Source: a candidate division WOR-3 bacterium (GTDB lineage: Bacteria; Hydrothermota; UBA3072; B12-G15). From it: 10,496 nucleotides of DNA. The position numbers and the translations under genes were made by a program. The notes beneath the pieces are model-generated. The model ran no database searches and was not told the DNA's origin. It was given only the letters and a program-made list of their open reading frames with translations. Of the stretch, positions 1-10,496 are shown one piece after another. The DNA is taken from assembly GCA_965649055.1 (NCBI GenBank), contig CBFGJG010000062.1, positions 1 to 10,496 of the forward strand. Direction: 5' to 3'. The number at the start of each line of letters is the position of its first letter. Position 1 is the first letter of the stretch.

Positions 1-88
1 GAAAAAGACGATGAAATTTGAACAATGGAAAAGGAGAAAAATAACCATGCACTTACACAAAATTATTGACAAGTGCCAAAATTATTAC

Positions 89-122: not shown

Positions 123-3100
123 ATGGCAAAGAAGAGAAGCATTACTGAGGCAATACTATCTTTTTTGCCAAGGAATATAGATTTATCAAAAGAAGTAGAT
201 TATTTTAATTCTACATTACTTTTTGTTGATATTTCAGGCTTCACTTCAATGAGTGAAAAGCTCGCTAACCTTGGGAGGGAAGGTTCAGAGGAAGTAAACA
301 GGATAATCAATAACTTCTTTTCACCACTTATTCAAATAGTTTATAAGTATAATGGAGATATATTGCATTTTGCCGGTGATGCTTTCCTCTCTCACTTTAA
401 AGGTGATGATGAAAAGGCGACAGAAAACGGAATGTTAGCAGCTATTGAAATAATTGGATTTGCCGAAAAAAATTCATCCGTAAAAACAAAGATGGGGACA
501 TTTAATTTAAAATTACACATTGCTTTAAATAAAGGAAAGGTTTTTTATATCGATTTAAAAAACAGATATTTTTTCTGTGGGAATACTGTCAATGAACTTA
601 TGAAACTTGTTGACCTTGCAAGCTCAGGAGAGATAGTTGTTAGTGAATCGGTAAAGAAGGATATTAAAAATGCAAGGTTTAAAGAGATAAAAGGTGCTTA
701 TAAATATATTAATGGGGATTTGAAAATAAAAGAACATACTGAAAGAAATTTGTTTCCTACACAGGATATCCCTGAAGATAAAATTAAATGTTTAATCCCT
801 GATTGGCTCCTTAAAAGGATAAAGATAAAACCGGAGTTTGATTATAAAGATGGGGAACACAGAAAGATAACATTTGTATTCCTCCATTTCTCGGGAATTC
901 CTTATGATAGTGACAAGGATAAGTCTGTAAGATTGCTTAGAAAATTTAACAGAATATTAAAACTCACAGCTGATAAATATGATGGTTGGGTTAATCGTTT
1001 AGATGTTTACAAGGATAGTGAAAGGGCTTTTATTATATTTGGTTTCCCGATTGCTTACGAAGATCAGGAGGAAAGGGCATTGCTTTTTATAAATGAGATA
1101 ATAAATAATTCTGATATTAAAGATATAAAGATAAGAGCTGGTGTTAACTCCGGGTTTGTATTCATATCACCGGTTGGTAATGAGATAAGAAGAGAATATA
1201 CTATAATTGGTGATGCAGTAAATCTTTGTGCAAGGATTGCTTCATCTGCAGATATTGGAAATGTTTTTATCACTGAAGAAATATATAATAGAACTTATGA
1301 TTTATTTGAATATGAATCAATAGGTGCTAAAGAATACAAAGGTAAGAAAGATAAAATACCTATTTTTGCACTTTTAACAAAAAAGAAAATTGAGCATAAA
1401 AAAACAAATAGATGGATAAGTGAGAGTGAAAAACTGGTAAATAGGAAAAAAGAAATAGAAAAGATAAAAGAATTAATTAATCTATCTTATGCTTCAAAAG
1501 GTCAGATAATAAGAATCGTTGGTGAACCGGGAATAGGTAAATCAAGGCTCACAGAGGAAATGATAAAAATATCAGAAGAAAAGGGATTTAGTATTTTTGT
1601 GGGAAATTGTGTTTCATATGGAAGTTCATTTTCATACCATCCTTTTATTAATATATTAAACGAACTATTTGGAATATCTTTAAATGATCCAGTAGAGTCA
1701 AAGAAGGAAAAAATTGCTAAAAAATGTGAAAAAGTGAATAAGGAGCTAGTTGAATGGCTACCTTTAATCGGTGAAATTATGGGAATAAAGTTTGACGAGA
1801 CTAAACTTATAAAATATATAGACGCTAAAACTAAAAAGCAAAGGATAAATGAGATAATTTTTGAGCTTGTAAGATTTGAATCAAATGTAAAACCAATAAA
1901 CATTATAATTGAAGATATGCACTGGGCAGATTCAGGTTCAATTGATGTAATAAACTATATAGGTAGAAATATTGAAAACGAAAAAATATTATTGACACTT
2001 GTATATAGACCAATTGAGAGAATAGAAGAGTTTATGGAAAAAGAATGGTCTCATGAATTTATACTGAAAGAACTATCAGGTGAAGAAATAAGTGAATTGA
2101 TAACTAACCTTCTTTATATAAAAAATATCCCTGAAGATTTATGGAAAACAATAGTAGAAAAATCTCAGGGGAATCCATTCTATGTTGAAGAACTTATAAA
2201 ATCACTCATTGAACAAGGAGTTATTATAGAAGAGAAAGAAGGATGGAGTTTTAATAAAGAGACGAAGGAAATAAAACTACCTGACACACTTGAATCTTTA
2301 ATCCTTTCAAGGATAGATAGACTTGCATTTCAGGATAAGAATATATTGCAGATTTGTTCTGTCTTTGGTAAAGAATTTGATGAATTCCTGATAATGGGAC
2401 TTATAGATAATAAAAATGAACTTAACAGATCAATTCAAAACCTTCAACGCCTTGATCTGCTTAAAAAAGAAACTAAAACTGGTGAAGTTAAATACTATTT
2501 CAAACATATTCTTACGAGGGAAGTTACATACAATACAATTTCATATGCCAGGAGAGAAGAGTTACATAAGAAAACAGCACTTTATATTGAAAAAGAAATG
2601 CAAGAAAGAAAAGATGAATTTTTACATTTACTTTCGTATCATTTTTATATGGGGAAAGATTATGAGAAATCACTTATATATTCTGTTTTAGCTGGCGAAA
2701 GGGCAAAAAAAATTTATGCAAATAAGGAAGCAATAGAATTTTTCACAAGGGCAATAGAATCTTATGAAAGACTCAACGATATAGATAAAAAAGAGAAAAA
2801 GGAATTATACATTAAAGCACTTGAAGGACTGGGTGATGTTGAACATTTAATTGCGAAATATGATGAATCTATAAAAAGATATGAAAAAATTAAAGATATT
2901 TGTGTAGATGATATTGAAAAAATACACAATGCTACATATCAAATTGTTCTGAATATAATTTTGGGTAAAGATGATATTGATAATGCGAAGAAAATAATTA
3001 AAGAATTGCTCTTAGAGATTGACAGGATTAAGGAAAAGGACTTATTCCTGAAATCATTAAACATTCTCGGAGTTATAGAAAGAAGACGAGGAAATTATGA

Positions 3101-3815
3101 TGATGCTTTAAAATATCTTAGAGAAGGATTGGAATTGTCAAAAGAACTGAACGATAAGGAAAAAACATGTGTATTCCAGTCTAATATTGCACACATTGCT
3201 TACAATAGGGGTGATTATGACACTGCGATCGAAATGTTCAATAAATCATTGGAACTTGTGGATAGAGAAGATATGATAAGATTAGGGCAGATATATTCAA
3301 ATCTAGGGCTTATATATCAGTATAAAAAGGAACTGGATAAAGCACTTGAATATTATAATTTATGTTTGAAGATGTGTGAAAAGATAGGGTATAGAAAACT
3401 ATATGCACACACTCTTGGAGATATCGCTGTTATATATAAAGAAAAAAAAGACTATAATACAGCACTTGAATATTTAAACATGGCACTTTCTATCCTTAAA
3501 AATATTGATGCCTTAAGAGATACGGGAATAGTAATTTCTCTAATTGGCACTGTTTATTTTAGTTTGGGGGAATTTGAAAAAAGTCTTGAATATATAAATA
3601 ATTCTTTATCTATATACAATAAATTAGGTGATAAAAGACTGATTGCAACGAGCTATCAAAAAATTGGTGAGATTTATATAAAATTAAAAAGATTTAAAGA
3701 TGCTTATGAATTCCTGAAAAAAAGCGAAGAGATATTTGAAAAAATCAAAAATAAACCAGAACTGGAAAAAACCCGTGAACTTCTTAAAGAAATAGAAAAA
3801 CAAGATTTAAAATAA
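123..3815 (+). CDS. Adenylate/guanylate cyclase domain protein: tandem class III cyclase domains + STAND/AAA ATPase + TPR repeats
   Basis: 1230-aa ORF. Cyclase domain 1: LLFVDISGFT (D36) and FAGDA (D86). Cyclase domain 2: RREYTIIGDAVNLCAR (T360, N367, R371). Walker A GEPGIGKS (aa 467-474, nt 1521-1544), Walker B IIIEDMHWAD, GNPFY, YYFKHILTREVTY winged-helix motif, then ~40-aa helical repeats at the C terminus. Confidence 0.93.
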   Translation: MAKKRSITEAILSFLPRNIDLSKEVDYFNSTLLFVDISGFTSMSEKLANLGREGSEEVNRIINNFFSPLIQIVYKYNGDILHFAGDAFLSHFKGDDEKATENGMLAAIEIIGFAEKNSSVKTKMGTFNLKLHIALNKGKVFYIDLKNRYFFCGNTVNELMKLVDLASSGEIVVSESVKKDIKNARFKEIKGAYKYINGDLKIKEHTERNLFPTQDIPEDKIKCLIPDWLLKRIKIKPEFDYKDGEHRKITFVFLHFSGIPYDSDKDKSVRLLRKFNRILKLTADKYDGWVNRLDVYKDSERAFIIFGFPIAYEDQEERALLFINEIINNSDIKDIKIRAGVNSGFVFISPVGNEIRREYTIIGDAVNLCARIASSADIGNVFITEEIYNRTYDLFEYESIGAKEYKGKKDKIPIFALLTKKKIEHKKTNRWISESEKLVNRKKEIEKIKELINLSYASKGQIIRIVGEPGIGKSRLTEEMIKISEEKGFSIFVGNCVSYGSSFSYHPFINILNELFGISLNDPVESKKEKIAKKCEKVNKELVEWLPLIGEIMGIKFDETKLIKYIDAKTKKQRINEIIFELVRFESNVKPINIIIEDMHWADSGSIDVINYIGRNIENEKILLTLVYRPIERIEEFMEKEWSHEFILKELSGEEISELITNLLYIKNIPEDLWKTIVEKSQGNPFYVEELIKSLIEQGVIIEEKEGWSFNKETKEIKLPDTLESLILSRIDRLAFQDKNILQICSVFGKEFDEFLIMGLIDNKNELNRSIQNLQRLDLLKKETKTGEVKYYFKHILTREVTYNTISYARREELHKKTALYIEKEMQERKDEFLHLLSYHFYMGKDYEKSLIYSVLAGERAKKIYANKEAIEFFTRAIESYERLNDIDKKEKKELYIKALEGLGDVEHLIAKYDESIKRYEKIKDICVDDIEKIHNATYQIVLNIILGKDDIDNAKKIIKELLLEIDRIKEKDLFLKSLNILGVIERRRGNYDDALKYLREGLELSKELNDKEKTCVFQSNIAHIAYNRGDYDTAIEMFNKSLELVDREDMIRLGQIYSNLGLIYQYKKELDKALEYYNLCLKMCEKIGYRKLYAHTLGDIAVIYKEKKDYNTALEYLNMALSILKNIDALRDTGIVISLIGTVYFSLGEFEKSLEYINNSLSIYNKLGDKRLIATSYQKIGEIYIKLKRFKDAYEFLKKSEEIFEKIKNKPELEKTRELLKEIEKQDLK

Positions 3816-3848
3816 ATCTTGTATAAATAAAAAATTTGGAATTAGGAT

Positions 3849-3885
3849 AAACTGGTTTTAAATTTAATCGGGGTTTCTATTTTTT
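3849..3885 (+). terminator. Possible weak intrinsic terminator after the cyclase gene
   Basis: CTGGTT (3852-3857) can pair with AATCGG (3866-3871) using two G-U pairs, followed by a T6 run at 3880-3885. The stem is weak. Confidence 0.25.
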
Positions 3886-3894
3886 ACTATCTCC

Positions 3895-3922
3895 TTGACT
3901 TAAAAGGAAACAGTTATAAGAT
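3895..3922 (+). promoter_or_regulatory. Putative sigma70-type promoter of the carbamoyltransferase-XDH operon
   Basis: TTGACT (3895-3900), 16-nt spacer, TAAGAT (3917-3922), just upstream of a strong RBS. Confidence 0.6.
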
Positions 3923-3931
3923 AACATAAAC

Positions 3932-3938
3932 AGGAGGT
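3932..3938 (+). promoter_or_regulatory. Shine-Dalgarno sequence of the carbamoyltransferase gene
   Basis: AGGAGGT. GGAGG ends 7 nt before ATG 3945 and 4 nt before ATG 3942, which favours 3945 as the start. Confidence 0.85.
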
Positions 3939-3944
3939 TTTATG

Positions 3945-4949
3945 ATGGATTTTAAAAATAAGCATTTGATCACATTTGATACATGGACAAAGGAAGAAAT
4001 AGAACATGTCCTTGATGTTTCGGGTTTTCTTAAAGAAAAATACAAGAAAAAAGAACCAACAGAATACCTTAAATATTACACTCTTTTTATGATTTTCTTT
4101 GAACAATCAACAAGGACAAGGAACTCCATGGAAGCCGGGATGACACAACTCGGTGGTCATGCACATGACTTGACACCTGAAAAGATGCAATTATCACACG
4201 GTGAGACACCAAAGGATACTGCAAAAGTCCTTTCAAGGATGGGAGAAGGAATAGCAATAAGGAATTGTTTCTATAATATCGGGAATAGATACATAGAAGA
4301 GGTTGCAAAATATTCTGAAATCCCTGTTATATCAATGCAGGATGATGTTTATCATCCTTTACAGGTTATAGCAGACCTGATGACTATAAGGGAACATTTC
4401 GGGAATAACCTTAAAGGTCTTAAAGTTGCAATACTATGGGCTTATGCAACAAGCCATGCAAAACCTTTGTCAGTTCCACAATCACAGGCTCTGCTTTTCC
4501 CAAGATATGGTATGGATGTTGTTATTGCAAATCCGGAAGAATTTCCATTGCAGAAAAATATAATAGAGAAGGCTAAAAAAAATGCAAAAGAGAATGGTGG
4601 AAGTATAAAGATTGTGAATAGTTTTGAAGAAGGTATAAAAGATGCAGATATAGTTATACCTAAAAACTGGGGTGGATTTGGATACTTTGATAAATGGGAA
4701 GATACAGATGAACAAAAGAATATTATGAAAAAAAACCTTGAAAAGCACAAGGACTGGATATGCGACGAAAAAAGATTCAAACTTGCAAAAAAAGATGCAA
4801 AGATAATGCATGCATTACCAGCAGATAGAGGAAAAGAGATAGTTGATGAACTTCTTGACGGACCAAATTCAATAATATACGATGAGGCTGAAAATAGACT
4901 CCATACATCAAAGGCAATCCTTACACTGACAATGAGAGGTGGAGTATAA
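3945..4949 (+). CDS. Ornithine/aspartate carbamoyltransferase-family protein, YgeW-like knotted transcarbamylase
   Basis: Carbamoyl-phosphate motifs STRT (4107-4118) and HPLQ, plus EAENRLH. WAYATSHAKPLSVPQ loop and DADIVIPKNW resemble YgeW (WAYSPSYGKPLSVPQ, DADIVYPKSW). No DxxxSMG ornithine motif, and HALP replaces HCLP. Alternative start is ATG 3942. Confidence 0.9.
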   Translation: MDFKNKHLITFDTWTKEEIEHVLDVSGFLKEKYKKKEPTEYLKYYTLFMIFFEQSTRTRNSMEAGMTQLGGHAHDLTPEKMQLSHGETPKDTAKVLSRMGEGIAIRNCFYNIGNRYIEEVAKYSEIPVISMQDDVYHPLQVIADLMTIREHFGNNLKGLKVAILWAYATSHAKPLSVPQSQALLFPRYGMDVVIANPEEFPLQKNIIEKAKKNAKENGGSIKIVNSFEEGIKDADIVIPKNWGGFGYFDKWEDTDEQKNIMKKNLEKHKDWICDEKRFKLAKKDAKIMHALPADRGKEIVDELLDGPNSIIYDEAENRLHTSKAILTLTMRGGV

Positions 4950-6067
4950 AATTCAAACAGAGATGCTTTGAATGTAAAAAAGAATATGATTTTGACCCAT
5001 TTTTGATGCTCTGCCCTGAATGTTCAAAGAAAAATACGAAAGAAAAACCATTACACGGAATACTTGAGTTTATATATGATTTTGATAAAAAGGAAATATT
5101 AAATCTTCCAGTAGAAGATGATTTTTTTCCAAATATACCAGTTGGTAAAACACCTTTATTTAAACCTGATTATTTTAAATCATCAGGTTTTCAAAATGTA
5201 TTTATAAAGAATGATTCATTAAATCCTACTGGTTCATTGAAAGACAGGGCTTCTATACTTGTTGCAGCTTCTGCAAGAAAATACGGTATTAAAGAGATAG
5301 TTGTTGCATCGACAGGGAATGCAGGTTCATCCATGGCAGGAATTGGCGCTGCGTCTGGGATAAAGGTAAAATTGTTTGTTCCTGAAAAGATACCAAAAGC
5401 AAAACTTATTCAGGCAAAACAGTATGGTGCAGAAGTTGTTCTGGTTAAAGGAAACTATGATAAGGCTTATGATTTATGTATGGAATATTCCTTAGAAAAA
5501 AAAATCCTATCAAGGAATACCGCATACAATCCGATGACAATAGAAGGAAAAAAAACAGTAGTCTTTGAGATATTTGAGGAGTTAAAAAGAATTCCGGATT
5601 ATATTTTTCTTCCAGCAGGTGATGGTGTTATACTTGGTGGTGTTTATAAAGGTTTGCTTGAACTTTATAAGATGAATAAAATTAAAAAGATTCCAGAAGT
5701 ATTTGCAGTCCAGAGTGAAAGAAGTTCTGCTATTGCGAATGCTTTAAAAGAAGGTGATTTTAGAAGGATAAATGCGGATTCTATTGCTGATTCAATAAAT
5801 GTAGATGTCCCGAGGAATGGATATTATGCGCTAAAAATGCTTAAAAAATACAATGGGGAATGTGTGGTTGTAAGTGATGATGAAATTTTAAAATCTCAAC
5901 TATTGCTCTCTTCAAAGACCGGTATATTTGCAGAACCTGCTGCTTCTGCATCTTTTGCTGGATTTATGAAGATGAAGGATAGGATAGATAAAGATAAAAT
6001 AGCGGTTATCCTGATAACAGGCTCAGGGCTTAAAGACATAGAAAATGCATCAAAATTGATAAAATGA
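4946..6067 (+). CDS. Threonine synthase-like PLP-dependent enzyme (fold type II) with N-terminal CxxC...CxxC zinc ribbon
   Basis: NPTGSLKDR (PLP Lys at 5240-5242), ASTGNAG, EGKKT, GIFAEPAAS, LITGSGLKD. The ORF track starts at TTG 5003, but the frame is open upstream and encodes the first CFEC pair (4964-4975). I place the start at ATA 4946, 5 nt after GAGGT. The start is less certain than the family call. Confidence 0.88.
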   Translation: MKFKQRCFECKKEYDFDPFLMLCPECSKKNTKEKPLHGILEFIYDFDKKEILNLPVEDDFFPNIPVGKTPLFKPDYFKSSGFQNVFIKNDSLNPTGSLKDRASILVAASARKYGIKEIVVASTGNAGSSMAGIGAASGIKVKLFVPEKIPKAKLIQAKQYGAEVVLVKGNYDKAYDLCMEYSLEKKILSRNTAYNPMTIEGKKTVVFEIFEELKRIPDYIFLPAGDGVILGGVYKGLLELYKMNKIKKIPEVFAVQSERSSAIANALKEGDFRRINADSIADSINVDVPRNGYYALKMLKKYNGECVVVSDDEILKSQLLLSSKTGIFAEPAASASFAGFMKMKDRIDKDKIAVILITGSGLKDIENASKLIK

Positions 6068-6624
6068 ATTCAGATGTTATAATACTTGCAGCAGGAAAAT
6101 CGGAGAGGATGAAAACTTGGAAGATAGAACTTGATTTTAAAGGTAAGAATATGATTGAGATTGTTGTTGAAAAATTTGAAGACATTTGTAAAAATATTAT
6201 AGTTGTAGGTGGTTATAATTTTGATATGTTGAAAAAGATACTGAATAAAAAAAAGATTAATATGGTTTATAATGAGAGATACAATGAAGAAATGTTTTTA
6301 TCAGTAAAAAAAGGTGTTTCATTTGTTGAAAGTGAAAGGTTTTTTATTATCCCTGCAGATTGCCCATTTGTTAGGAAGGAAACAATCTTAAATATGCTTA
6401 GTTTAGATGAAGATATTGTTGTTCCGTTCTATAATGGTAAAGGGGGTCATCCGATTCTTATGAAAAAATATTTGAAGATTGAATTGCTGAGTGAGCCAGA
6501 TACATCAAGCTTAAAAGAATTTATCAAAAGAAAAGGATTTAAAAGGATATATGTTGATGATGAAAATATTTTGATAGATATTGATACTTTGGAAGATTAT
6601 GAAAGATACAAAGAGATATATTGA
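6064..6624 (+). CDS. mocA: Molybdenum cofactor cytidylyltransferase-like nucleotidyltransferase (MocA/YgfJ, NTP_transf_3 family)
   Basis: IILAAGKSERM...K, PADCPFV, GKGGHPIL and DIDTLEDY motifs. ATGA overlap with the upstream gene. Adjacent to XDH-family subunits, which typically use molybdopterin cytosine dinucleotide. Confidence 0.85.
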   Translation: MNSDVIILAAGKSERMKTWKIELDFKGKNMIEIVVEKFEDICKNIIVVGGYNFDMLKKILNKKKINMVYNERYNEEMFLSVKKGVSFVESERFFIIPADCPFVRKETILNMLSLDEDIVVPFYNGKGGHPILMKKYLKIELLSEPDTSSLKEFIKRKGFKRIYVDDENILIDIDTLEDYERYKEIY

Positions 6625-8650
6625 TGATATAGATTTTGGTGATGTCCTTTATGGTAAGACATTATATTCAGAGATTCCAAAAGGAGAGATTTTATCTATA
6701 GAAATTCCAGAGCTTCCTGATGGATATTTTATTGTCGATTATAAAGATGTTCCTTTAAACAGGGTGAAGGTGATAAATGATGAACAACCAGTATTTGCAG
6801 AAAGGTATGTGAATTATGTGGGTGAACCAATACTTCTTGTTGTTGGAAAAGATAAGGGGATTTTAAGCGAAATAATAAGAAAAATAAAGATTGATTACAG
6901 GATTGAAGAACCTGTTTTAACAATTGATGATGCGATAAGTAGAAATAATGTTATTGTGAGTTATCAGTATGAGAAAGGGAATGTTGAAGAAACAATGAAA
7001 AACGCAAATGAGATAATTGAAGGAACATATGAAACAGGTTATCAGGAACATCTTTATCTTGAAACACAAGGGATGGTTGGTGTTTATAAAGATGGAAAAA
7101 TCTCTGTTTATGGTTCAATGCAATGCCCTTACTATGTTAAGAATGCATTGATACACGCATTGAAAATGGATGAAGATAAGATAAGGGTTGTTCAGGTTTC
7201 AACTGGTGGTGGATTTGGTGGTAAGGAAGATTACCCATCTATACTTGGAATTCAGGTTGCAGTTGCAGCAATGAAATGTTCAAAACCTGTTAAGATTGTT
7301 TACGATAGAAAAGAAGATTTTATAATGACAACGAAAAGGCATCCTTCAAGGATTATATATAAGACAGCTCTTGATGATGATTTAAAACCTGTTGGTATGG
7401 ATGTTTTGATTTATCTTGATGGTGGTGCATATACAACTTTATCACCTGTTGTTCTTCAAAGGGCAATGTTTTCAGCAGAAGGTGTTTACAATATCCCAAA
7501 CCTGAGGGTGAAAGGCATTGTCTTAAGAACAAACAAAGTTCCATCAGGTGCAATGAGGGGATTTGGAGCACCACAGAACTTTTTTGCTGTTGAGACACAT
7601 ATTGATGATATAATAAGAAGGTTTAATCTTAATCCATATTATTATAGAAAGAAAATATTAATAAAAGAGAATGATAGAACACCAACGAATGGGATATATA
7701 GAGGTGAAATAAAGATAAGGGAGATGCTTGATAAGATAGTGAAGGAATCAGATTTTCTTGAAAAATACAAAAGATTTAAAAAGATGAAGAATAAAGGAAT
7801 TGGTATTTCCTGTTTCTTCCATGGTTGCGGATTCACTGGTTCAGGTGAGATACTATTAAGAAGCACTGTTAAGGTGAGAAAAAAAGGAGATAATATTATA
7901 ATTTATATGAGCAATGTTGATATGGGGCAGAAATCTACTGAAGGTATTAAGAAGATAGCAGCAATGACACTTGGTATACCATTAGAAAATATAATAATTG
8001 AAAAACCTGATACAGATATAGTTCCTGATTCAGGACCAACCGTTGCATCAAGGACAACACAGATTGTAGGGAAACTTGTTAAGGATGCATGTGAGGAGAT
8101 AAAAAAGAATAAAGATAAAAAAGAGATAACTGTTTTGAAAACATTCAAATTTCCAGAAGTTCTTTTATGGGATGGTGAAAAATTTTCAGGTGATTCCTAT
8201 GGAGAATATTCATTCGGGATAAATATTGCAGAGGTTGAATTTGATGATATAACAAAAGAGGTGAAGATTTTAAAGATATATGGTATTTATGATGTTGGGA
8301 CACCAATTGATAAAGAATTTGTGAGGCAACAACTTGAAGGTGGGATTGTCCAAGGTCTTGGTTATTCAATATTTGAATCACTTGATGTTGATAAGAATGG
8401 AAATTTTAACAAATTCACATTAACAGATTATGCAGTCCCAACATCAATGGATATTCCTGAAATAAAAATATGGATTTATAAAACAAAAGGTCTATTTGGA
8501 CCTTTTGGAGCAAAATGCTGTGGAGAACTTCCATTTGTTGGTGTTGCACCTGCTGTATGTTCTGCTGTTAGAATGGCTCTTCGCAAAAATATTTCAAGGA
8601 TACCGATAACCCCGGAATATATTCAGAGGATTTTAAAATATGAAGATTAA
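6599..8650 (+). CDS. Xanthine dehydrogenase family molybdopterin-binding (large) subunit
   Basis: YIDD, QEHLYLETQG, GGGFGGKE, AMRGFGAPQ, VDMGQ, DSGPTVASR, EGGIVQGLG and KCCGELP (catalytic Glu at 8525-8527). Start is ATG 6599 or TTG 6581, with an in-frame TAG at 6575-6577 limiting any upstream extension. Confidence 0.93.
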   Translation: MKDTKRYIDDIDFGDVLYGKTLYSEIPKGEILSIEIPELPDGYFIVDYKDVPLNRVKVINDEQPVFAERYVNYVGEPILLVVGKDKGILSEIIRKIKIDYRIEEPVLTIDDAISRNNVIVSYQYEKGNVEETMKNANEIIEGTYETGYQEHLYLETQGMVGVYKDGKISVYGSMQCPYYVKNALIHALKMDEDKIRVVQVSTGGGFGGKEDYPSILGIQVAVAAMKCSKPVKIVYDRKEDFIMTTKRHPSRIIYKTALDDDLKPVGMDVLIYLDGGAYTTLSPVVLQRAMFSAEGVYNIPNLRVKGIVLRTNKVPSGAMRGFGAPQNFFAVETHIDDIIRRFNLNPYYYRKKILIKENDRTPTNGIYRGEIKIREMLDKIVKESDFLEKYKRFKKMKNKGIGISCFFHGCGFTGSGEILLRSTVKVRKKGDNIIIYMSNVDMGQKSTEGIKKIAAMTLGIPLENIIIEKPDTDIVPDSGPTVASRTTQIVGKLVKDACEEIKKNKDKKEITVLKTFKFPEVLLWDGEKFSGDSYGEYSFGINIAEVEFDDITKEVKILKIYGIYDVGTPIDKEFVRQQLEGGIVQGLGYSIFESLDVDKNGNFNKFTLTDYAVPTSMDIPEIKIWIYKTKGLFGPFGAKCCGELPFVGVAPAVCSAVRMALRKNISRIPITPEYIQRILKYED

Positions 8651-9080
8651 ATTTTATTTGAATGGAAAAAGAAAAATAATAGATGTAAATCCTTTAAGGA
8701 GACTGGTTGATGTTTTAAGGGAAGATTTAAATATAAAAAGTGTTAAGGAAGGATGTGGTGAAGGTGAATGTGGAAGTTGTATGGTTATTGTTGATGGTAA
8801 GATTATGAATTCCTGTCTTATTCCTGCGGGTTCTTTATATAATAAGAGAATTTTAACGATTGAAGGAATAAAGAATGATAAAGTTTTTATGAAAATCAGG
8901 AAGAAGATAGAGGATGAATTCCAATGTGGATTCTGTGAGAATGGAATGCTTATATCTTTGTATTGGTTATATAAAAATAAGAAGAATCCAGAGAAGAAGG
9001 ATATAAAAGAAGCAATATCAGGAAATATATGTAGATGCACTGGCTATCAGGGGATAATAAAAGGATTAAAGGATGGATGA
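8640..9080 (+). CDS. Xanthine dehydrogenase family (2Fe-2S)-binding small subunit
   Basis: Two cluster motifs: GCGEGECGSC...NSC and QCGFC...CRCTGY. GAGGA RBS at 8626-8630. Overlaps the large subunit by 11 nt. Confidence 0.93.
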   Translation: MKIKFYLNGKRKIIDVNPLRRLVDVLREDLNIKSVKEGCGEGECGSCMVIVDGKIMNSCLIPAGSLYNKRILTIEGIKNDKVFMKIRKKIEDEFQCGFCENGMLISLYWLYKNKKNPEKKDIKEAISGNICRCTGYQGIIKGLKDG

Positions 9081-9927
9081 AATTGTAATTCCTGTTGATT
9101 TAAAAGATGCTCTTAATATTTTGAAGGATAGGAACCTTATTCCATTTGCAGGTGGGACTGATTTGATGGTAAAATACAGGTTTGATAAACCTGAAAAGCC
9201 TTTTATATTCATAGGTGATTTAAAAGAATTAAGATATATAAAGAAAGAAGGTTCAGTTGTAAGAATTGGTGCATCTATAAGATATAACGAATTACTTGAA
9301 TCTAAGATTATTCCAGTTGTATTCAAAGATATAATAAAAAATATAGGTTCACCATCAATAAGGAATATGGGAACTATTGGTGGGAATATATGCAATGCCT
9401 CACCTGCTGCTGATACATTACCATTTCTATACGCAATGGATGCAGAGGTTGTAGTTTCATCTTTTGAGAATGAAAAGATTATTTCCATTTTTGATTTTAT
9501 AAAAGGTCCCAAGGAAACAATCTTAATGAAAAATGAATTATTAAAAGAGGTAAGATTTAAGTTGGAAAAATTTAACAAATATTATTATAGAAAGATTGGA
9601 TTAAGAAATGCAAATTCTTTATCAAAGGTCTCATTCTTTGGATGTGCGAAGATTATTGAAGGTAAGATTGAAGATATAAGGATAGCATTTGGTGCAGTTT
9701 CTCCTATAGTTGTGCGTGATAGAAAAATTGAAGAAATGTTTATTGGGAATGACAGAAAAGTATTGGATAAAATTAAAAAAGATATAATAGAAAGATATTC
9801 TGAAATTATAAGACCAATAGATGATCAGAGGTCGACAAAAGAATACAGGAAAGAAATAGCATTAAGATTACTTGAAGATTTTATTCTTATGTTATTCAAA
9901 AAATCAGAGAAAAAATGCGTAAATTGA
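9073..9927 (+). CDS. Xanthine dehydrogenase family FAD-binding (medium) subunit
   Basis: AGGTDL, IRNMGTIGGNICNASPAAD, RIAFGAV and PIDDQRSTKEYR motifs. Overlaps the Fe-S subunit by 8 nt. Confidence 0.93.
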   Translation: MDEIVIPVDLKDALNILKDRNLIPFAGGTDLMVKYRFDKPEKPFIFIGDLKELRYIKKEGSVVRIGASIRYNELLESKIIPVVFKDIIKNIGSPSIRNMGTIGGNICNASPAADTLPFLYAMDAEVVVSSFENEKIISIFDFIKGPKETILMKNELLKEVRFKLEKFNKYYYRKIGLRNANSLSKVSFFGCAKIIEGKIEDIRIAFGAVSPIVVRDRKIEEMFIGNDRKVLDKIKKDIIERYSEIIRPIDDQRSTKEYRKEIALRLLEDFILMLFKKSEKKCVN

Positions 9928-10347
9928 ATGAGGTTATTTTTGTAATAAGTTCTATTATTTTTAATTTATCCGTGAGCGTTGTTTATGTATCTTCAAAGGA
10001 TGATTTGACAAATATTTTTTTAAAAATTTCAGGCTTGATCGTTGTTTCTTTAATAATTCCATTTATTATATCACTTGTTGGTTTTATTAAAGGCAGGGCA
10101 AAAATAAAGATAATAATCTCAAATATTATTGTAATTTTCTATCTATTACTGGAAAATATTATTAGATTATATCTTACGAATACCTTTCAGGCAAATTTTA
10201 TCTATTCATTTACCATATATAATTATCTTTTATGCTGCTACTTTCAGTATGATAGGTGCAAGTTTCACAATAAACAGGAAAATCGGATTTATTGTATTGG
10301 GAACATTTTTTGTTTTAATGGGATGTTTAATTTATAATCTTAGTTAG
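9915..10347 (+). pseudogene. Small integral membrane protein of unknown function, interrupted by a +1 frameshift near 10153-10156 (pseudogene or sequencing error)
   Basis: Codons 9915-10154 give about three hydrophobic helices ending FYLLLE. Dropping one A from the A4 run continues as ILLDYILRIPFRQILSIHLPYIIIFYAATFSMIGASFTINRKIGFIVLGTFFVLMGCLIYNLS* (TAG 10345-10347), giving 143 aa. The uncorrected ORF is 9915-10337. Confidence 0.7.
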
Positions 10348-10385
10348 TATAAATTAGTCAAAAAATTATAATTTATCTGTTATTT

Positions 10386-10434
10386 CTATAATATATGTCA
10401 TATGTTTTTACTATAAAATATGTCACATTGTTTT
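10386..10434. repeat. Imperfect tandem direct repeat, 25-bp period, two copies
   Basis: CTATAATATATGTCATA-TGTTTT (from 10386) and CTATAAAATATGTCACATTGTTTT (from 10411). Confidence 0.7.
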
Positions 10435-10496
10435 CTAAACATAAGTTCTTTCCTTCAATATTTCTTCTATTCTTCTTTCTTTCCTTATCATTTCAT
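10435..10496 (-). CDS. 3' end of a convergent gene running in from beyond the window (product unknown)
   Basis: Minus strand reads ...EMIRKERRIEEILKERTYV* with TAG at 10437-10435. The purine-rich strand switches to minus here and the K/E/R-rich tail resembles other C termini in the window. Confidence 0.55.
   Translation of the reverse strand, partial: EMIRKERRIEEILKERTYV

Follow-up and report, generated by a model that had tools for sequence, protein, structure and literature searches.

The anaerobic degradation of urate was solved in 2025 in E. coli and clostridia (PMC12507026; 10.1101/2025.04.24.650524), and the reductive uric-acid cluster of E. coli is made up of xdhABC, ygeW-ygeX-ygeY-hyuA-yqeA, mocA and ygfK-ssnA-ygfM-xdhD, while a C. 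difficile-type variant uses UacX for YgfK and UacY for YgeW/YqeA (Li et al. 2025, PMC12507026). The neighbourhood survey of Li et al. took every PF00185 protein for YgeW and every PF00291 protein for YgeX, and environmental versions with other enzymes are thus hidden in the survey count. Here we analyse a stretch of 10,496 bases (the window), which is the complete contig C62 (CBFGJG010000062.1) of a metagenome-assembled genome of an uncultured candidate division WOR-3 bacterium known from hot-spring samples (GCA_965649055.1; 2.08 Mb in 85 contigs, about 31% G+C, completeness 93.8%, contamination 0.04%). The window carries a row of genes for a carbamoyltransferase (TC), a ThrC-fold pyridoxal phosphate (PLP) enzyme, a MocA-like protein and three subunits of a dehydrogenase (Table 1), and we consider it probable, judging from homology and gene order, that these include the entry enzyme and the final enzymes in a variant of the reductive uric-acid (2,8-dioxopurine) degradation pathway. 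All gene absences given below for the source genome are subject to its 94% completeness.

Like the E. coli cluster, the window and other contigs of the same genome encode a carbamoyltransferase, the M20 hydrolase YgeY, a fold-type-II PLP enzyme, SsnA, a hydantoinase-type amidohydrolase, an XdhD-type enzyme, MocA, carbamate kinase and a second xanthine dehydrogenase (XDH). The differences are that TC has 335 amino acids (aa) in comparison to 396 in YgeW and is without the YgeW inserts and C-terminal extension, that YgeX is absent from the genome and a ThrC-fold and a CysK-like enzyme are found instead, that UacX stands in place of YgfK, that SelD and YqeC were not found, and that the genes are spread over at least five contigs in this assembly. 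The PydA/PreA-like UacX, which lies beside SsnA and YgeY on contig C58, is a likeness to the C. difficile-type variant, in contrast to which the present genome keeps a phosphorolytic-type carbamoyltransferase and carbamate kinase, not the hydrolase UacY, and keeps FAD subunits on both dehydrogenases. This variant of the known urate pathway, with a different carbamoyltransferase and PLP enzyme, is new: literature searches found no published description of a ThrC-like/CysK-like urate variant among the titles listed, and the word "threonine" is absent from the main text of Li et al. 2025 (PMC12507026), as are "threonine synthase" and "cysteine synthase" from the main text of the preprint of Liu et al. 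2025.

Gene neighbourhoods and the rest of the pathway

To place the window among related loci, 365 genome stretches encoding the TC subfamily were collected and the best 80 loci were kept, to which all locus counts refer. The loci were compared with the window proteins, the other pathway proteins of the source genome and E. coli proteins, and were taken as assessable when at least 1.3 kb was available upstream (n = 68) or downstream (n = 72) of TC. Of the 68 loci, 54 have YgeY immediately upstream of TC, 8 have it at another place in the locus and 6 have no match that passed the coverage filter; of the 72, the ThrC-like gene comes immediately downstream of TC in 49 and at another place in the locus in 7, and there is none in 16. 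The gene combination, whose co-occurrence across genomes the earlier note on this DNA had proposed to check, is conserved. A MocA-like homologue was found in 34 of 67 assessable loci and a large subunit of the window type (at least 40% identity) in 11 of 48; the other genes seen were SsnA-like (30/80), YgfK-like (34/80), UacX-like (12/80), HyuA-like (16/80), XdhD-like (12/80) and carbamate kinase (6/80). The fullest illustration is given by locus L020, with the order XdhD-Hyu-SsnA-YgfK-YgeY-TC-ThrC-MocA-XL-XS-XM-membrane protein-DUF364-XdhC-NTPase-CysK-like, where XL, XS and XM are the large, small and medium dehydrogenase subunits. By homology, the neighbourhood gene set is that of the reductive urate pathway.

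The source genome was searched for the remaining pathway genes. Contig C58 encodes an SsnA-like protein (374.8 against a cut-off of 444), a PreA/PydA-like UacX and a YgeY that passes its equivalog cut-off (497.4 against 321), and contig C36 encodes a trio of FAD, Fe-S and XdhD-like subunits (the last 39% identical to E. coli XdhD) together with an allantoinase/hydantoinase-type HyuA-like amidohydrolase. Carbamate kinase was found on contig C37 (329.8 against a subfamily cut-off of 266), and positions 1049-5058 of contig C41 (L005) hold a collinear set of genes for a membrane protein, a DUF364/DUF4213 protein, an XdhC-like protein, an NTPase_1 protein and a 485-aa CysK-like PLP enzyme. The genome thereby holds homologues of the XdhD-type enzyme, UacX, SsnA, HyuA, the carbamoyltransferase and YgeY, and the lyase is assigned by analogy only. 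The earlier note had placed the amidohydrolases, carbamate kinase and XdhC elsewhere than in the operon, which is where these four contigs have them. Of its list of genes to be sought in the genome, SsnA, YgeY, HyuA-like, carbamate kinase and XdhC-like proteins were recovered, with UacX-like for YgfK, and DpaL/YgeX, SelD and YqeC were not found.

On contig C37 (L004), a 436-aa open reading frame (ORF) without Pfam or NCBIfam match (4443-5753) overlaps the start of carbamate kinase by 4 nucleotides (nt), and an Asparaginase_2 gene comes then.

The carbamoyltransferase, the dehydrogenase and the ThrC-like enzyme

TC scored below every NCBIfam cut-off, with 257.9 against 280.85 for the ornithine carbamoyltransferase (OTC) model TIGR00658, and with 201.0 against 500 and 211.9 against 453 for the YgeW models TIGR03316 and NF005538, the match being limited to residues 4-296. 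Its identity is 39.6% to E. coli YgeW in comparison to 27% to ArgI, and phmmer placed it about equally near the P. furiosus OTC (195.7 bits) and YgeW 3Q98 (191.8 bits). The kinship to YgeW was settled by alignment, which shows the special substrate-domain features of YgeW: TC and E. coli YgeW share WAYxxSxxKPLSVPQ (with a 4-residue insert in comparison to OTC), PK(N/S)W, HKDWxC and an IRxxxY-xxGN insert, and these are missing from ArgI, PyrB and the genome's own OTC. TC has KNWGGFG where OTC has DVWxSMG, the ornithine-binding DxxxSMG site, and HALP for HCLP. The carbamoyl-phosphate motifs are present (S56-T-R-T-R60, H138-P-L-Q141 and H290-A-L-P293), and their residues are invariant in 34 members of the TC subfamily except for L140 and L292, the latter being nearly invariant. 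TC is without the N-terminal extension, internal inserts and C-terminal extension of YgeW, and its C-terminal helix is OTC-like; these sequence features place it in a short subfamily that is related to YgeW but ends like an OTC.

Members of this subfamily are 55-72% identical across many phyla, among them Anaerolineae, Cloacimonadota, Spirochaetota, Acidobacteria, Thermotogae, Izimaplasma/Acholeplasmataceae, Neomarinimicrobiota, Ignavibacteria, Calditrichaceae and others, and a homologue at 91% identity carries the label candidate division WOR-3. Where a public name is given for the homologues it is ornithine carbamoyltransferase. In the source genome, a canonical OTC is encoded separately on contig C1 (TIGR00658, 433.7 against 280.85).

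A second, partial copy of TC was observed in the genome. The ribosome-binding site and first 29 codons (window 3927-4028) recur as an exact 102-nt copy on contig C58 (L003 260-361), on the same strand as SsnA-UacX-YgeY and about 7 kb downstream of them, just after two ORFs of 80 and 217 aa without family matches, and fused tail-to-tail to what appears by eye to be a 5' fragment of a DNA-methylase gene. A 335-nt contig spanning both junctions of the copy is present in public run X1. The region of about 7 kb between YgeY and this fragment (L003 359-7424) encodes an 815-aa protein with weak, below-cut-off adenine-methyltransferase matches and a 995-aa protein without family match, and may be a defence island. 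The copy could be a remnant of an ancestral YgeY-TC junction split by the inserted island, or a strain variant.

For the large subunit of the window dehydrogenase the best solved relatives were the bovine, rat and R. capsulatus XDH. Bovine residues were mapped along the alignment (chain numbering + 570, the offset checked against the alignment), and the equivalents of Gln767, Glu802, Arg880, Arg912, Phe914, Phe1009, Thr1010 and Glu1261, among them the residues of purine binding and catalysis, are all kept. In eight orthologues of the large subunit the six positions compared (Gln767, Glu802, Arg880, Phe914, Phe1009 and Glu1261) are kept as well, while four of the six motifs are different in XdhD-type enzymes: Gln, Asn (or another residue) and Tyr, with a different loop, occupy these columns in the XdhD-like protein of C36 and seven orthologues of it, and likewise in E. 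coli XdhA and XdhD. Because its active-site columns are kept, unlike those of the XdhD type, the window enzyme is assigned by alignment to the classical xanthine-oxidising type, and the C36 enzyme to the urate-reducing type. Like bovine xanthine oxidoreductase and the R. capsulatus XDH, the window dehydrogenase has three cofactor modules and the same active-site residues; unlike them it is split into three small subunits, and E. coli XdhA and R. capsulatus XdhB exceed its large subunit in length by about 60-90 aa.

The equivalog scores of these proteins were low, with a best score of 342 for the large subunit against 783.65 (the PucD and XdhA cut-offs), 136-150 bits for the 2Fe-2S subunit with PucE/XdhC-type models and 143-180 bits for the FAD subunit with XdhB-type models, the last two also below the cut-offs. 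The MocA-like protein (TIGR03310, 137.8 against 186.45; 29% identity to E. coli MocA) is probably a molybdenum-cofactor cytidylyltransferase serving the dehydrogenases.

The closest solved relatives of the ThrC-like enzyme, by sequence and by fold, were threonine synthases. Its predicted structure (pLDDT 93.8) matched the short bacterial threonine synthases with TM scores of 0.77-0.79 at 30-33% identity, and with the enzymes of A. aeolicus (2ZSJ), B. subtilis (6CGQ/6NMX) and T. thermophilus (1UIM/1V7C) it shares the fold, the PLP lysine (K99, invariant) and the conserved STGN loop. Unlike them it adds an N-terminal Cys4 zinc ribbon, has GDG for GNAGN and stands in a catabolic gene context. The CxxC...CxxC pattern of the ribbon was found in 57 of 59 ThrC-like homologues, one of the remaining two being truncated. 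The score against the threonine synthase model TIGR00260 just passes (171.6 against 167.1), and NTAYNP(L/M)TIEGKK is found where 2ZSJ and 6CGQ have SVNPYR(I/L)EGQKT. In T. thermophilus threonine synthase, Ser155 and Arg160 presumably hold the phosphate of O-phosphohomoserine, roles that were reportedly described by Omi et al. in 2003; among the 59 homologues the Ser155 column holds Ala in 49 and Gly in 10, and the Arg160 column Thr in 52, Leu in 5 and Met in 2, with no Ser and no Arg. Homoserine dehydrogenase (PF00742) gave no match in the source genome, while 14 of 14 control genomes were positive, and a biosynthetic threonine-synthase role is unlikely for this reason. The enzyme is thus, on sequence grounds, unlikely to be a biosynthetic threonine synthase. 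It is also well apart from DpaL (TIGR01747, 25.4 against 274; 22% identity to E. coli YgeX), the two being of the same fold type and of different families. It is the sole ThrC-family gene found in the source genome, while G014, a genome of the same order, has an orthologue (60%) plus a ThrC-family paralogue at 34%. The earlier note had called for a search for separate canonical argF and thrC genes, of which the former was found, on C1, and the latter was not. A complex prediction for TC and the ThrC-like enzyme scored 0.00 and gives no verdict either way.

The ThrC-like gene starts with ATA at 4946, overlapping the TC stop (ATAA). Its reading frame has no ATG, GTG or TTG from the upstream stop to TTG 5003, the first CxxC of the zinc ribbon lies upstream of that TTG, and in the alignment with the same-order orthologue (MKFYYKC in comparison to IKFKQRC) ATA 4946 falls exactly on the ATG of the latter. 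The sequence GAGGTGGAG precedes the ATA. Positions 4946-4948 are without difference in contigs of three public hot-spring runs from two studies, at low depths (2.6-4.6) and with one run that may be the source sample. We therefore take ATA to be the true start. Contigs of runs X2 and X3, which belong to different studies, have A>C at 5006, by which an internal Met after TTG 5003 becomes Leu; the ATA is unchanged in them.

Proposed pathway and alternative readings

In the pathway that we propose, the three-subunit dehydrogenase would oxidise hypoxanthine and xanthine to urate, with the MocA-like protein providing its cytosine-dinucleotide molybdenum cofactor, and the XdhD-like urate reductase, the UacX-like reductase, SsnA and the HyuA-like amidohydrolase, all encoded on other contigs, would take urate to 2,3-diureidopropionate. 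TC is proposed to phosphorolyse one ureido group of this compound, which would give carbamoyl phosphate and, through the carbamate kinase of C37, ATP; the frequent position of YgeY immediately before TC is in favour of this role. The second ureido group would be hydrolysed by the YgeY of C58 to give 2,3-diaminopropionate, and a PLP enzyme would convert the latter to pyruvate and ammonia. The ThrC-like enzyme, which is translationally coupled to TC, is our first candidate for this step and is proposed to be the terminal PLP lyase on a C3 diamino acid, where it may work alone or with the CysK-like enzyme of C41. The chemistry follows Li et al. 2025 (PMC12507026) and the preprint of Liu et al. 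2025 (10.1101/2025.04.24.650524); the substrates, the ureido group removed by TC and the identity of the last PLP enzyme are all inferred.

To determine which PLP enzyme fills the YgeX role, the whole genomes behind all 80 loci were searched for DpaL, CysK-like and ThrC-like proteins. A DpaL family member above the cut-off was found in only 8 of the 80 TC-bearing genomes, in comparison to 74 for a CysK-like enzyme (36-69% identity). The ThrC-like enzyme was found with E <= 1e-30 in 49 of the first 50 genomes (with at least 215 bits in 42 of these 50), and with E <= 1e-50 in 26 of the other 30. The CysK-like enzyme of the source genome (C41:3601-5058), a second conserved PLP enzyme that the earlier note could not have known of, shares 66% identity with that of L020. 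In 24 of 80 loci the cluster itself includes a CysK-like gene, which at times comes directly after the ThrC-like gene. The block of XdhC, DUF364 and NTPase genes, which in the source genome is on C41, lies downstream of the XDH genes in 4 of 80 loci (L020, L029, L040 and L084), and it is followed by the CysK-like gene in the source genome, L020, L029 and L040. The slot of the CysK-like gene was inspected for a substitute enzyme in L084 and L008, and only an amidohydrolase and housekeeping genes were seen. The CysK-like enzyme could have a role in cofactor sulfuration or could be the terminal lyase.

These data bear on whether the two PLP enzymes have their roles the other way round in the same pathway, with the CysK-like enzyme as the analogue of diaminopropionate ammonia-lyase and the ThrC-like enzyme in an accessory step, which could be the inversion or processing of a D-configured intermediate or an action on the free-amine mono-ureido product of TC. 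Besides the wide distribution of the CysK-like enzyme and its presence inside a part of the clusters, this arrangement is favoured by the pattern of absences, the CysK-like enzyme being missing in 3 of 8 DpaL-positive genomes in comparison to 3 of 72 other genomes (one-sided Fisher 0.012, related genomes not being independent), and by the presence of the ThrC-like enzyme in 8 of 8 DpaL-positive genomes, which does not fit a simple exchange in which either enzyme excludes the other. The absences of the CysK-like enzyme are thus a weak sign that it is the analogue of YgeX. In addition, the pathway intermediates are R-configured according to the Liu et al. 2025 preprint (10.1101/2025.04.24.650524), and E. 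coli YgeX accepts both isomers according to Li et al. 2025 (PMC12507026), so that a replacement of YgeX by two enzymes is conceivable. In contrast, inspection of the DpaL homologues in three genomes (G042, G089 and G078) showed no urate-pathway genes next to them, and these homologues may for that reason serve another purpose; the position of the CysK-like gene after the XdhC-DUF364-NTPase block fits cofactor sulfuration equally well; and the slot beside TC that ygeX-like genes would take is held by the ThrC-like gene, not the CysK-like gene, in the 49 of 72 loci given above. Gene position favours the ThrC-like enzyme, then, and co-occurrence slightly favours the CysK-like enzyme, and we rate the exchanged roles as unlikely, if a serious possibility.

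As a tentative proposal, to which we give somewhat less than an even chance, the ThrC-like enzyme may be a new lyase acting on D-2,3-diaminopropionate or a beta-ureido-alanine-type substrate, which together with the CysK-like enzyme would replace YgeX; with TC, the two would make up an environmental, ATP-yielding and perhaps selenium-independent urate fermentation in many uncultured phyla, including hot-spring WOR-3.

Several results weigh against a urate pathway of this kind in the source genome, apart from the distribution of DpaL just described. TC, SsnA, the XdhD-like subunit, the HyuA-like protein, MocA and the XDH subunits all scored below the NCBIfam equivalog cut-offs. SelD (over the cut-off) and YqeC were not found in the genome despite its two xanthine-dehydrogenase-family enzymes, and in the Liu et al. 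2025 preprint (10.1101/2025.04.24.650524) all cluster-bearing gut strains have SelD and YqeBC and C. sporogenes requires SelD for purine degradation. The start codon of the ThrC-like gene is non-canonical, and an orthologue of this gene was found in only 2 of 40 relatives searched, the cluster being patchy within the phylum and widespread across phyla. Finally, contigs C41, C58, C36, C37 and C62 all terminate in members of dispersed-repeat families, and their linkage cannot be inferred for that reason.

The low equivalog scores of TC, MocA and the XDH subunits, and the many substrates of XDH-family enzymes, would also suit an operon that degrades another N-heterocycle or ureido compound (pyrimidine-, hydantoin- or nicotinate-like) and merely resembles the urate cluster. 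We consider this improbable on three counts. The Glu802/Arg880 pair, which is specific for purines, and the Phe914/Phe1009 sandwich of classical XDH are retained in the large subunit; the genes that accompany TC (YgeY, SsnA, HyuA-like, XdhD-like and YgfK or UacX) are the defining urate set; and the YgeY of the source genome passes its equivalog cut-off. That the first two genes are an ordinary argF and thrC beside a dehydrogenase operon is what the public names of the TC homologues, the pass of the ThrC-like enzyme against TIGR00260 and its standing as the sole ThrC-family gene found would suggest, and it is very improbable indeed in view of the canonical OTC on C1, the replaced ornithine-site and HCLP motifs of TC, the missing homoserine dehydrogenase, the loss of the presumed phosphate-holding Ser and Arg in 59 of 59 sequences and the synteny with urate genes across many phyla. 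The description of the row in the earlier note, as a rearranged purine (or other N-heterocycle) catabolic module and not arginine plus threonine biosynthesis, is supported by this synteny, by the pathway genes found elsewhere in the genome, by the separate OTC and by the lost Ser and Arg.

The urate-pathway reading has consequences for annotation. TC and the PLP enzyme sit in families labelled ornithine carbamoyltransferase and threonine synthase, and hundreds of genomes (365 stretches) are affected by this mislabelling, by which organisms would be wrongly credited with arginine and threonine biosynthesis. If the true activities of the ThrC-like enzyme and the CysK-like enzyme were assigned, one or two new enzyme functions would be gained, along with a test of whether urate fermentation can proceed without the selenium cofactor trait.

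Layout of the window, contig ends and repeats

Table 1. Features of the window (positions are those of the 10,496-base stretch).
Feature	Position	Strand	Matches and remarks
Candidate sigma-70-like promoter, TTGACT-16-TAAGAT	3895..3922	+	Weak consensus match inside the 3816-3941 gap
Carbamoyltransferase (TC), 335 aa	3942..4949	+	Pfam OTCace_N + OTCace
ThrC-fold PLP enzyme, 373 aa, N-terminal Cys4 zinc ribbon	4946..6067	+	PALP 239 bits; ATA start
MocA-like (MobA-family) nucleotidyltransferase	6064..6624	+	NTP_transf_3 102 bits
Molybdopterin-binding large subunit	6599..8650, alternative start TTG 6581	+	Ald_Xan_dh_C, MoCoBD_1, MoCoBD_2
Two-[2Fe-2S] small subunit	8640..9080	+	Fer2_2 + Fer2
FAD-binding medium subunit	9073..9927	+	FAD_binding_5 + CO_deh_flav_C
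Doubtful hydrophobic ORF, 140 aa	9915..10337	+	No family matches
Dispersed repeat, contig end	10377..10496	.	100% identity to C56, C57 and C82 stretches

Six well-supported genes stand in the row, those of TC, the ThrC-like enzyme, the MocA-like protein and the three dehydrogenase subunits. The earlier note had counted seven consecutive genes behind one promoter with overlaps of 4, 4, 26, 11, 8 and 13 nt. The overlaps were reproduced (the second at 6064/6067, the 26-nt one using ATG 6599), the first 4-nt overlap requiring ATA 4946, and the count held for the six genes with family support and not for the seventh ORF, which is not conserved. The latter had been taken as a membrane protein, a view that our results do not sustain: it has no Pfam or NCBIfam family match and no homologue in the 80 related loci, and its frame is doubtful, since a membrane helix appears in its tail only when this is read in a different frame, with its end at 10347. 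The membrane protein that is conserved after the FAD subunit in other genomes matches C41:1049-1660 instead.

The row follows a 1230-aa protein (123-3815) after a gap of 126 nt (3816-3941), which is the sole sizeable intergenic gap. The single promoter could not be confirmed, as it rests on this one gap: promoter-like sites number 33 in the window in comparison to 38.1 +/- 5.2 in shuffled sequences, the promoter and terminator scan being uninformative in this AT-rich DNA, and the site listed in Table 1 was chosen by its placement. The idea that the operon is complete and ends at a probable convergent gene fared no better, since no minus-strand ORF of at least 25 aa was found past 10337 and the window is a whole contig that ends in a dispersed repeat, with identical stretches of 95-120 nt in C56, C57 and C82. 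The collinear downstream block sits on C41 in this genome, and the operon is therefore cut by the assembly, the repeat at the contig end being the reason for the break at this place. Rfam at gathering thresholds and ARAGORN gave no matches in the window.

The 1230-aa protein at the start of the window combines an adenylate/guanylate cyclase domain with an AAA_16 domain and TPR repeats, and belongs to a multi-copy family in the source genome, with further members on C22 (67% identity), C48, C9, C1, C5 and C61. A role as regulator of the operon was considered and set aside as unsupported, given the many paralogues in the genome and the absence of a match in all 80 loci.

Many contig ends of the genome, including window positions 1-77 and 10377-10496, consist of dispersed repeats of about 100-200 nt, which belong to at least two families and break the assembly. 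One family is common to the 5' end of C41, the 3' end of C58 and the 5' end of C82, another is common to the 5' ends of C36 and C37, and the window's own two ends match further, different contigs.

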